Sequence record: PQ438393.1
Source of the DNA: Escherichia phage vB_Eco_J-01
Strand: one strand, 5' to 3'
DNA length: 64,000 bases
Shown here: piece by piece, positions 15,617 to 15,687 of the stretch
Numbering within the stretch: position 1 is the first letter of the stretch
Layout of the letters: each line of letters begins with the position of its first letter
Position numbers and translations under genes: made by a program
Notes under the pieces: generated by a model
Databases searched by the model: none
What the model was told of the DNA's origin: nothing
Seen by the model: only the letters and a program-made list of their open reading frames with translations

Positions 15617-15646
15617 AGTTATGTCTCCTTGTTTGTTAGTGTGGGA

Positions 15647-15678
15647 GTATCTTACTAAGCATACTCCCTATTGTCAAC
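15647..15678 (-). promoter_or_regulatory. sigma70-like promoter (TTGACA-N17-TAAGAT) overlapping an 8-bp-arm palindrome
   Basis: minus-strand hexamers upstream of nadV; palindrome gggagtat...atactccc (15643-15668) spans the spacer and -10. Confidence 0.4.
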
Positions 15679-15687
15679 ACTTATTAT

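Follow-up and report, generated by a model that had tools for sequence, protein, structure and literature searches.

A candidate sigma-70-type promoter overlapped by a PeSL-like stem-loop upstream of nadV in a phi92-like Escherichia coli phage

In the phi92-like E. coli myophage vB_Eco_J-01, assigned to Justusliebigvirus (Stephanstirmvirinae) at 98-99% identity and analysed here over a window of 64,000 nucleotides (PQ438393.1), the genes prs and nadV follow each other on the minus strand, separated by an intergenic region of 71 nt. This gap accommodates the elements of a predicted promoter, P_nadV, an inverted repeat which overlaps it and the translation start signals of nadV:

15690-15688, minus strand: TAA stop codon of prs, within the AT-rich aatttttaaataataag
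15678..15699, minus strand: AT-rich UP-like region tggaatttttaaataataagtg, 5' of the -35
15672..15677, minus strand: -35 of P_nadV, TTGACA, of which TTGAC is kept in Klebsiella relatives
15661..15668, minus strand: 5' arm of the nadV stem-loop, GGGAGTAT, within the promoter spacer
15649..15654, minus strand: -10 of P_nadV, TAAGAT, after a 17-nt spacer without TG
15643..15650, minus strand: 3' arm of the nadV stem-loop, ATACTCCC
15642, minus strand: predicted start of P_nadV, an A, the 7th nt past the -10
15630-15625, minus strand: Shine-Dalgarno sequence of nadV, AAGGAG
15616-15614, minus strand: ATG of nadV

The start at 15642 is predicted from the sigma-70 spacing rule, by which transcription begins about 7 nt past the -10. 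The perfect 8-bp inverted repeat which an earlier note on this DNA had seen across spacer and -10 is indeed present (15668-15661 / 15650-15643, minus strand); with a 10-nt loop it occupies positions -26..-1 and covers the spacer, the final 2 nt of the -10 and the discriminator. The corresponding RNA hairpin has a predicted energy of -12.9 kcal/mol (z -4.0; 1/200 shuffles). Its tail, ACACUAAC, contains one U in 8 nt and no U-tract, and the terminator scan remained silent here, so that the hairpin is not a canonical intrinsic terminator. As the stem-loop ends at -1, transcripts from P_nadV would lack it, and it would form only in RNA reading through from prs. The A/C-rich leader from +1 onwards is predicted to lack structure (-1.5 kcal/mol), and its sequence AACAAACA is invariant across the relatives compared. 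In Klebsiella phages GTGTTGAC of the promoter is retained within diverged flanks, and TAATCT, TACAAT or TAGAAT is found at the -10 position in relatives.

P_nadV does not stand alone, since besides it 15 sites in the window match the -35 in at least five of six positions. Sigma-70-like sites of the window include:

16831..16859, minus strand: TTGACA-N17(TG)-TACCCT, in the divergent region upstream of prs
16621..16649, minus strand: TTGACT-N17-TAGAGT, with a predicted start 33 nt upstream of the prs ATG
13862..13890, minus strand: TTGACT-N17(TG)-TAAGAT, at the nadV 3' end, upstream of ORF 13811-13590
13440..13469, minus strand: TTGACA-N18(TG)-TAAGAT, upstream of ORF 13410-13144 (gp110 homologue), conserved in Klebsiella relatives
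12898..12926, minus strand: TTGACA-N17(TG)-TATAGT, 5 nt upstream of an unannotated tRNA (12886-12808)
12757..12786, minus strand: TTGACA-N18(TG)-TAGATT, upstream of tRNA-Ser(UGA)
11457..11486, minus strand: TTGACA-N18(TG)-TAGAGT, upstream of tRNA-Gly
10207..10235, minus strand: TTGACT-N17(TG)-TATCCT, directly past the intrinsic terminator 10277-10259
6756..6785, minus strand: TTGACA-N18(TG)-TAAAGT, upstream of the gp120 homologue
5063..5091, minus strand: TTGACA-N17-TAGACT, upstream of the gp121 homologue
25357..25414 (site and hairpin), plus strand: TTGACT-N18(TG)-TAATAT, with a terminator-like hairpin
28893..28940 (site and hairpin), plus strand: TTGACG-N16-TATTAT, with a hairpin
31091..31149 (site and hairpin), plus strand: TTGACT-N17-TAGTAT, with a hairpin
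48496..48524, plus strand: TTGACA-N17-TAAACT, right after the canonical terminator cccgcttcggcgggtttttt

The architecture common to these sites, an AT-rich upstream region, TTGACA, a spacer of 17 or 18 nt, often TGn, and TAnnnT, corresponds to the sigma-70 consensus of the host plus an extended -10, the TG of which was found at 10/16 sites. Six of the sites (5091-5063, 11486-11457, 12786-12757, 12926-12898, 13469-13440 and 15677-15649) had been grouped by the earlier note under the formula TTGACA-N17-T(A/T)AGAT. All six are real, each with a perfect TTGACA and a TAnnnT; the formula itself is exact at two of them. A search of the window for TTGACA-N17-T[AT]AGAT retrieved three matches versus 0.04 expected, among which only 12786 and 15677 belong to the six, while the third, at 36795 on the plus strand, has GCAGTTAACTGC in its spacer; situated within a gene and with no gene start downstream, it is taken as a chance match. 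At most sites TTGACA-N17/18-(TGn)-TA[AG][AG][AG]T is the better register, and part of the -10 as first formulated is thus an extended -10 read one base out of register.

With a more relaxed definition of the sites the enrichment is pronounced. TTGACA-N16-18-TANNNT occurs 21 times in the window versus 4.45 +/- 2.3 times in dinucleotide shuffles, and 8 of the 21 fall into the non-coding 8.7% of the window (binomial p = 2e-4); the full genome of the related phage VEcB has 53 occurrences versus 11 +/- 3, with 24 of them non-coding (p = 5e-12). In the Klebsiella relatives, with NadV about 72-74% identical, the -35 and the promoter positions are kept despite diverged surroundings; the 13890 promoter, for example, reads TTGACG-N17(TG)-TAAGAT there. 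Enriched, intergenic, facing nadV, gp110, tRNAs and head genes and conserved in position, the sites are supported by these comparisons as promoters, which the earlier note had proposed, and as promoters of the sigma-70 type, whose activity and transcription starts we infer. In the literature searched, no transcription-start, 3'-end or RNA-seq data were found for Justusliebigvirus or Vequintavirinae.

Host-type promoters of this kind have already been reported for related phages. Predicted sigma-70-like promoters of rV5 carry an extended -10 in 11 of 33 cases (PMC3606486), and the consensus of the Certrevirus phages CB7, CR3, CR8 and CR9 is AAAA-N4-TGTTGAC-N17-TATAAT (PMC7344957). The present sites share with them the consensus with its UP element, the distribution over early, nucleotide-metabolism and structural regions and the absence of a phage RNA polymerase. 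The sections of these two reports consulted list promoters and terminators apart and contain no description of promoter-embedded stem-loops, and the -10 hexamers of the window (TAAGAT, TAGAGT, TAAAGT) are poorer in T/A at positions 3-5 than the ones given there.

The association of a promoter with a hairpin is not restricted to nadV. Further hairpins at promoters of the window are:

13810..13882, minus strand: long hairpin at the 13890 promoter, -23.6 kcal/mol, z -3.5
6744-6723, minus strand: 5'-UTR hairpin TCTACCCC-ttcaat-GGGGTAGA at +5..+26 after the promoter of the gp120 homologue
5082-5065 / 5058-5041, minus strand: 18-bp hairpin enclosing the 5091 promoter, -20.7 kcal/mol, z -4.6, 0/200 shuffles
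-6..+17 of the 25357 promoter, plus strand: terminator-like hairpin GCCTACCTA-ctcagt-TAGGTGGGC, then TTTT
-6..+13 of the 28893 promoter, plus strand: hairpin CGCTCCC-acaaac-GGGAGCG
+5..+23 of the 31091 promoter, plus strand: hairpin AGGAGAGC-tat-GCTCTCCT

A U-tract follows the 25357 hairpin alone, the 28893 hairpin being without one; as these two overlap -6..+17 and -6..+13, their promoters' own transcripts would begin within the hairpin. Between the end of the 5091 hairpin and the Shine-Dalgarno sequence GAGGA of the gp121 homologue (ATG at 5026) lie 4 nt (5040-5037). When stems of at least 6 bp with at least 4 GC pairs located between -35 and +30 were counted at the intergenic sites above the score filter, 4 of 13 sites in the window had such a hairpin (0.07 expected), as had 16 of 37 in VEcB (0.3 expected). 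Beyond the window, at 82-90 kb, VEcB encodes about 12 near-identical promoter/stem-loop cassettes, which adjoin small ORFs at intervals of 270-560 bp and have the stem-loop at about +3..+25.

Comparison of the nadV upstream regions is informative with respect to what is conserved. In 12 of the 13 relatives with an intergenic gap, a hairpin of the type Gn-loop-Cn (-10 to -14 kcal/mol) is located 21-31 nt upstream of the nadV ATG. At least eight stem variants occur (GGGAGTAT/ATACTCCC, GGAGAGGAT/ATCTTCTCC, GGGGTG/CACCCC, GGGCG/CGCCC, GGGGAGA/TCTCCCC, GGGGACG/TGTCCCC, GGGGCA/TGCCCC and CGGGGC/GCCCCG), and in all eight the G-run comes first and the C-run second. Compensatory changes distinguish L018 (T-A) from L019 (C-G) and L017 (G-C) from L023 (C-G). 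MAFFT aligned the 3' arms but, with loops of unequal length and registers offset by 1 nt, left the 5' arms unaligned. The hairpin is thus kept by structure and not by sequence. Its loop measures 3-10 nt, in L018, L019 and L020 being exactly the -10 hexamer, and the distance between the arm centres ranges over 9-18 bp (18, 15, 12, 11 and 9-11). The place of the hairpin relative to the promoter moves from -26..-1 to about +6..+20; in L017, L023, L025 and L026 it is downstream of the promoter and would therefore sit in the gene's own transcript, an arrangement which suits a 5' stabiliser over a terminator. In L026 and the FelixO1-like phages, on the other hand, a U-tract follows the equivalent hairpin, which makes it terminator-like. 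Among close relatives the palindrome is identical in 50 of 55.

This pattern bears directly on the proposal of the earlier note that the palindrome is operator-like and places the NAD module under repressor or activator control. Operators over core promoters are classical, as in lambda, P22 Arc/Mnt and the LexA boxes, and a perfect inverted repeat between -35 and +1, unchanged in most close relatives, occupies just the position where a dimeric protein bound to the duplex would occlude spacer and -10. Unlike such operators, the nadV half-site is conserved among relatives neither in sequence nor in spacing, and some relatives have the element outside the core promoter; the variation in loop, arm distance and hairpin position cannot be reconciled with a dimer binding DNA in a conserved geometry. 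Moreover, the palindrome has no second copy with up to 3 mismatches in the 64 kb, the region upstream of prs included, the half-site being confined to the two arms, and the G.U pair of the Klebsiella hairpins on the sense strand is a mismatch in duplex symmetry. An asymmetry of G.U pairs between the strands would be a sign of RNA and not of DNA; genome-wide, hairpins were longer on the sense strand in 4 cases, longer on the antisense strand in 3 and equal in 7, which favours neither. The NadR box, which we take to be TGTTTA-N6-TAAACA, had 9 matches versus 10.6 expected, none of them near nadV or prs. A permissive Rfam scan of 10000-17200 returned only tRNAs and noise, with no riboswitch or cis-regulatory match in the nadV leader; at E <= 5, nothing was found in 15600-15700 and the prs leader except a weak GA-cis hit at 16787-16902 (21.3 bits, gathering 34.7). 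Control by a DNA-binding protein at this palindrome is hence very improbable, the palindrome is not to be labelled an operator in annotation, and nothing in the results suggests a regulatory protein or a type of element not known before.

Other identities were considered and rejected. As a GC hairpin lies upstream in just 5 of 31 unrelated nadV phages, and is a canonical terminator in the FelixO1-like ones, the element is not an NAD-specific RNA. A translational switch at nadV is rejected because Shine-Dalgarno sequence and AUG are unpaired in the read-through RNA as well as in the RNA from +1. An antisense terminator would have to rely on a weak U-rich tail of the reverse strand, present in the window and absent in the Klebsiella relatives, where by inspection the G.U pair becomes an A.C mismatch.

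The closest counterparts are the PeSLs (promoter-early stem-loops), composite promoter/terminator cassettes of the T4-type phages RB49/phi1, PST and nt-1 (Arbiol 2010, PMC2839356; Comeau 2014, PMC4122927). In RB49/phi1, their stem-loops consist of polyG followed by polyC, with G-T pairs, and are mostly situated between -35 and -10 or over the -10; one of them lowered downstream lacZ as much as rrnB T1 (PMC2839356). The cassettes, found among small ORFs, were proposed as recombination junctions. The 71-nt gap fits this layout from the stop codon, with the AT-rich region as first element, to Shine-Dalgarno sequence and ATG: the order of parts is the same, with a near-consensus sigma-70 promoter of N17 spacing and a G-run/C-run stem-loop, and VEcB has repeated elements among its small ORFs, which recalls the PeSLs. 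Differences exist as well. The VEcB stem-loops are downstream of the start (+4..+25), outside the five position classes of PeSLs, and the nadV stem sequence is single-copy in its genome and so, by a strict definition of PeSLs, no member of a repeat family. For elements of RB49/phi1, reporter assays showed strong transcription and a stem-loop that terminates or attenuates; for the present cassette these activities, like the formation of mini-circles, are putative. As the phage of the window is a phi92-like Justusliebigvirus of the Stephanstirmvirinae and PeSLs have been described in T4-type phages, we class the cassette as PeSL-like, outside the PeSLs described so far.

Taken together, P_nadV is probably one of many host sigma-70-type promoters, and its palindrome the stem-loop of a PeSL-type cassette with an attenuating or 3' end-protecting role. 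Such a cassette would comprise, in order, an upstream stop codon in AT-rich DNA, the -35, a Gn-loop-Cn element over spacer and -10, an unstructured A/C-rich leader, a Shine-Dalgarno sequence and the ATG. In RNA reading through from prs, where alone it would form, the most likely effect of the stem-loop is to attenuate or stop transcription coming from upstream, or to shield the 3' end of the prs mRNA; with read-through attenuated, terminated or 3'-protected in this way, nadV would rely mainly on P_nadV for its expression. The attenuator role is suggested by analogy only, and it is in this sense that we infer a function of the hairpin in the nadV region.

The evidence permits other readings to different degrees. 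In E. coli mRNA decay, a stem-loop 3-9 nt past the start has the geometry of stabilising 5' stem-loops, and at this distance past the predicted start the hairpin is found in L017, L023, L025 and L026 and in the about 12 VEcB cassettes. Together with the absence of a U-tract after the hairpin in the window and most relatives, and with a hairpin-ATG distance better conserved than the hairpin-promoter distance, this speaks for an element of RNA stability or processing, which would let RNA polymerase pass and act either as a barrier to 3'->5' exonucleases for the prs part of the read-through mRNA or, at +3..+25, as a 5' stem-loop protecting the downstream mRNA from decay that depends on the 5' end. 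We regard this as somewhat unlikely, as the window hairpin is wholly upstream of +1 and cannot protect the P_nadV transcript, and as the PeSL stem-loop tested cut expression like rrnB T1, which fits the termination or attenuation inferred by its authors, in an assay blind to the difference between termination and altered RNA stability. The cassette might also serve mainly as a linker, a conserved junction for the insertion, loss or exchange of genes, a role which may coexist with a transcriptional one: in the Klebsiella phages FKP3 and KP13-26 the space between prs and the cassette is taken exactly by an extra gene (an HNH endonuclease in FKP3, a 68-aa ORF in KP13-26), and the VEcB cassettes among small ORFs resemble the PeSL-rich hyperplastic regions (PMC2839356). 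This is improbable, however, given that HNH genes have a homing mechanism of their own by which they insert and that the nadV stem is absent from the other cassettes of the same genome, which leaves little homology for recombination.

Finally, an 8-bp inverted repeat could have arisen over the promoter by chance and be functionless, the intergenic gap being crowded. The window contains 247 inverted-repeat pairs with 8-nt seeds no more than 30 nt apart, a GC-rich hairpin with 6 bp or more is present on one strand or the other in about 10% of non-coding 59-nt windows, and in a gap of 60-70 nt any hairpin must overlap promoter or leader. Against this stand the stem variants, at least eight, at a constant distance to the nadV ATG in relatives whose NadV proteins are 44-74% identical, and an association of promoters with hairpins far above that in shuffles. 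These comparative data already disfavour the chance reading, to which we would give hardly any credence.

If hairpins of a PeSL-like cassette act as proposed at nadV, composite promoter/stem-loop cassettes would not be peculiar to T4-type phages, but would represent a convergent or shared way to insulate densely packed genes all read by the host polymerase, and read-through control, mRNA stability and gene shuffling would become testable in the phi92 group with simple reporters. Promoters and stem-loops delimit the transcription units of this phage group, which is widely used, with therapeutic and BASEL-type phages. Tentatively, it can be envisaged that phi92/rV5-like phages, for which no late sigma factor or phage RNA polymerase is known, systematically embed sigma-70 promoters in hairpins, so that the fates of read-through and local transcripts diverge. 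If so, the consequence would be termination or decay at nadV, 25357 and 28893 and sequestration of the Shine-Dalgarno sequence at the 13890 promoter; the 18-bp stem at the 5091 promoter and the 5' stem-loops of the approximately 12-copy cassette family would also belong to the scheme, and a layer of PeSL-like and T4 gene e-like control, possibly with modular gene shuffling, would have evolved outside the T4 group.

The latter type of control is known from T4 e, soc, 49 and I-TevI, where the promoter lies within the 5' strand of an inhibitory hairpin (reviewed in PMC3014915). The likeness consists in a hairpin that read-through RNA forms and locally started RNA cannot, with the promoter in or upstream of the 5' arm. 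At nadV it is incomplete, since the 3' arm is clear of Shine-Dalgarno sequence and AUG and either transcript has a free leader, and the T4 cases differ further in using late (gp55) promoters instead of sigma-70 ones. The likeness is closest at the 13890 promoter, where the 3' arm holds Shine-Dalgarno sequence and AUG and Klebsiella phages have kept the pairing. There, the 5' arm CUUCGUGA (13875-13868) is located inside the promoter spacer, while the 3' arm UCACGAAG (13824-17) together with UUUAU (13814-10) covers the Shine-Dalgarno sequence of ORF 13811-13590 and the AU of its start codon. The FKP3 homologue of this hairpin (-25.3 kcal/mol, z -4.7) has conserved arms and a different interior.

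The inverted repeat at P_nadV, the predicted sigma-70-type promoter of nadV, was read in the earlier note as an operator controlling the NAD module. Judged by its sequence features, it is best filed as a composite element resembling the promoter-early stem-loops (PeSLs) of T4-type phages, here in a phage group outside the T4 type. Between 13000 and 18000, the window matches Escherichia phage phi92 and some 55 further genomes of Justusliebigvirus (Stephanstirmvirinae) at 98-99% identity; according to the phi92 annotation, prs, nadV, small ORFs, some 16 clustered tRNA genes and head genes follow each other on the minus strand, and the phi92 record has ribosome-binding sites annotated, not promoters. 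The repeat is indeed perfect, with GGGAGTAT (15668-15661), a 10-nt loop and ATACTCCC (15650-15643), and begins in the spacer, takes in the final two bases of the -10 and ends at position -1.

16581-15688, minus strand: prs (gp107, phi92 annotation)
15677-15672, minus strand: -35 hexamer TTGACA of P_nadV
15654-15649, minus strand: -10 hexamer TAAGAT of P_nadV, after a 17-nt spacer
15642, minus strand: predicted start A of P_nadV
15616-13883, minus strand: nadV (gp108, phi92 annotation), with its ATG at 15616

The six sites previously grouped as a promoter family all carry TTGACA without mismatch together with a TAnnnT hexamer, while the proposed formula TTGACA-N17-T[AT]AGAT is exact at two of them, not at the other four, and additionally at one intragenic site on the other strand. 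In the alignment, A-rich DNA precedes TTGACA or TTGACT, a spacer of 17 or 18 nt and TA[AG][AG][AG]T, with TGn before the -10 at 10 of 16; this architecture is the sigma-70 consensus of E. coli, complete with a UP-like region and an extended -10, and the TTAGAT variant of the formula is mostly TG-T-TAGATn shifted by one base in register. The window holds 21 matches to TTGACA-N16-18-TANNNT, 8 of them in non-coding DNA (8.7% of the window), versus 4.45 +/- 2.3 expected from dinucleotide shuffles; VEcB (OZ035773.1), the complete related genome mapped to the window, has 53, 24 of them non-coding (p = 5e-12), versus 11 +/- 3 in shuffles. Since the motif is enriched and its non-coding share high in both, the family is not a product of chance. 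Additional sigma-70-like sites are found as follows.

16859, 16649, 13890, 10235 and 6785, minus strand: additional sigma-70-like sites
25357, 28893, 31091 and 48496, plus strand: additional sigma-70-like sites

The evidence that such sites are promoters is indirect and consistent. The putative promoters are co-oriented with and located upstream of nadV, prs, the gp110 homologue, tRNAs and the gp120/gp121 homologues. In the Klebsiella phages FKP3 and KP13-26 and a metagenomic contig (L016), with NadV proteins 72-74% identical, the -35 before nadV is conserved despite diverged flanks, and the promoters after nadV occupy equal positions. The 12926 promoter has its predicted start 5 nt upstream of a tRNA gene (12886-12808, minus strand) missed by ARAGORN and without annotation in phi92, which reaches 38.6 bits in Rfam (gathering score 29) and whose anticodon loop cUUCUAa suggests tRNA-Arg(UCU). 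As 33 sigma-70-like promoters, 11 with extended -10, have been reported genome-wide for rV5 (PMC3606486) and a common promoter AAAA-N4-TGTTGAC-N17-TATAAT for Certrevirus phages (PMC7344957), the promoter part of the claim is real but of a known kind.

Two plus-strand matches stand apart. At 50660-50725, the final codons of ORF 50080-50688 contain a perfect TTGACA-N18(TGg)-TATAAT, and the intrinsic terminator of this ORF, AAAGCCCC-aatca-GGGGCTTT-ATTTG, is found 9 nt past the predicted start; the consensus match has either arisen by chance or yields a very short RNA. The other, which is the third site to fit the formula exactly, is intragenic (36795-36823) and has GCAGTTAACTGC, a perfect palindrome of 12 bp, within its spacer; it is probably due to chance, since no gene start follows downstream.

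Among 55 close relatives, the nadV upstream region is nearly invariant, and the rare SNPs fall at the -35, in the loop or, uncompensated, at the basal pair, so that they are uninformative. Of 13 distant relatives with an intergenic gap, 12 possess a stable hairpin (-10 to -14 kcal/mol) 21-31 nt upstream of the nadV ATG, with a sequence that differs between genomes.

Window: GGGAGTAT-N10-ATACTCCC
Klebsiella phages: GGAGAGGAT-N6-ATCTTCTCC, with one sense-strand G.U pair
L018, L020 and L022: GGGGTG-TACAAT-CACCCC and GGGGTG-TAGAAT-CACCCC, the loop being the -10 hexamer
Iguana-like: GGGCG-TACAAT-CGCCC
L017: GGGGAGA-cat-TCTCCCC
L023: GGGGACG-act-TGTCCCC
L025: GGGGCA-cat-TGCCCC
L026: CGGGGC-acacc-GCCCCG

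Compensatory stem changes, judged solely where the alignment is in register, replace T-A in L018 by C-G in L019 and G-C in L017 by C-G in L023. The distance between arm centres varies from 9 to 18 bp, and the hairpin covers -26..-1, -25..-2, -18..-1 or -17..-2 of the promoter in some genomes and lies 3' of the predicted start, at about +3 to +20, in L017, L023, L025 and L026. A dimeric DNA-binding protein would be unable to follow such varying arm sequence, spacing and position, whereas a nucleic-acid hairpin is able to. Across the 64 kb, a search allowing up to 3 mismatches gave no further copy of the palindrome, and its half-site likewise does not recur, not even ahead of prs, with which the supposed NAD module begins. 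The element has no Rfam match, no site near nadV or prs resembles the NadR box, and only 5 of 31 unrelated nadV phages carry a hairpin upstream of nadV, so that the element is not NAD-specific. Copy search, variation among relatives and this lack of specificity argue against an operator.

The core hairpin (z -4.0) is formed in prs read-through RNA (centroid structure). Because it ends at -1, it is absent from RNA initiated at P_nadV (predicted 5' end ACACUAACAAACAAGGAG...), whose leader is essentially free of structure (-1.5 kcal/mol). Folding leaves the nadV Shine-Dalgarno sequence (SD) and AUG unpaired in both RNAs, which rules out a translational switch for nadV. On our best reading, the hairpin would act on upstream transcripts only: it may attenuate or terminate them, or shield the 3' end of the prs message from 3' exonucleases, and P_nadV would initiate transcription anew, the logic of a PeSL. 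What the analysis shows is the sequence features, their enrichment, their folding and their conservation; every functional step is inferred. An RNA stability element is the main rival mechanism. The window hairpin is followed by no U-tract (tail ACACUAAC), the weak point of attenuation or termination, and a 5' stabiliser would fit better in relatives and cassettes with the stem-loop just past the start; L026 and FelixO1-like phages do carry a U-tract on the hairpin at the corresponding place before nadV. Attenuation and stabilisation both operate at the level of the hairpin, and both are contrary to an operator.

GC-rich stem-loops at promoters are a recurring design in this phage. With a stem of at least 6 bp and at least 4 GC pairs between -35 and +30, hairpins accompany 4 of 13 score-filtered intergenic sites in the window (0.07 expected by shuffling) and 16 of 37 in VEcB (0.3 expected). 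VEcB also harbours about 12 near-identical cassettes outside the window (genome 81985-89742; ~31985-39830 of L094, our VEcB sequence), at 270-560 bp intervals among small ORFs and in the order A-rich, TTGACA, N16/17, TAAnAT, nTAnnACaT, AGGGCGGGAAatggTTTCCCGCC, purine-rich SD, ATG, the hairpin being at +4..+25; they make up a PeSL-like family of repeats within a genome of the phi92 type. Two hairpins in the window overlap the predicted start, so that the promoters' own transcripts would start inside them and upstream transcripts would meet them complete.

25387-25414, plus strand: hairpin over promoter 25357 (-6..+17), terminator-like with a UUUU tail
28921-28940, plus strand: hairpin over promoter 28893 (-6..+13), GC-rich, without U-tract

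PeSLs of RB49 and phi1 run from the stop codon of the preceding gene, set in AT-rich DNA, through a sigma-70 promoter close to consensus and a G-run-to-C-run stem-loop, most often sited between -35 and -10 or over the -10, to an SD with start codon. Whole cassettes were very strong promoters (PMC2839356; PMC4122927), and one PeSL stem-loop reduced downstream lacZ equally to rrnB T1 (PMC2839356). The nadV element shows all sequence-level features of this description and departs from it solely in host taxon and single-copy sequence. Our literature search, with the phi92 genome paper outside its reach, found no PeSL-like description for this phage group.

Two further promoters lie inside hairpins. 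At the 13890 promoter (minus strand, 3' end of nadV; TTGACT-N17(TG)-TAAGAT; 13810-13890 in the window, 3220-3300 in the FKP3 sequence), CUUCGUGA in the spacer pairs with UCACGAAG plus UUUAU, the 3' arm covering the SD and the first two start-codon bases (AU) of a 73-aa ORF (13811-13590). The fold reaches -23.6 kcal/mol (z -3.5) and its FKP3 homologue -25.3 (z -4.7); the arms are conserved between the two, whose interiors differ. RNA started at this promoter is without the 5' arm; the arrangement resembles the device of T4 genes e, soc, 49 and I-TevI (PMC3014915) and may permit translation solely of locally initiated transcripts. The 5091 promoter (TTGACA-N17-TAGACT; minus strand, 5041-5091), upstream of the gp121 homologue, is contained in an AU-rich hairpin of 18 bp (-20.7 kcal/mol, z -4.6), with its -10 at the loop and predicted start within the 3' arm; 4 nt (5040-5037) separate the end of the hairpin from the SD of this homologue, whose true start is likely ATG 5026, as in phi92 gp121, not 5038. 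Both cases strengthen the view that the nadV palindrome is part of a general promoter-in-hairpin design, which we would only tentatively regard as a systematic regulatory layer in phi92/rV5-like phages.

Some records of relatives deserve mention. In the phi92 record, a 'hypothetical tRNA' of 151 nt (10876-11026 of our phi92 sequence, L001) is placed within the nadV coding sequence; at the equivalent position in the window (~14870-15020), ARAGORN and Rfam find no tRNA. Four 'Campylobacter phage' records with C. jejuni as host, A150 (MG065639), A145 (MG065645), C3 (MG065656) and A110a (MG065689), share 98.6% identity with this E. coli phage across 5 kb; probably the organism or host was mislabelled, or else the samples contained foreign phage DNA through contamination. 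Klebsiella relatives carry an extra gene exactly between prs and the nadV cassette, where the window has a mere 10 nt (15687-15678).

FKP3 (L005), 857-1432: inserted HNH endonuclease gene
KP13-26 (L006), 1228-1431: inserted 68-aa ORF
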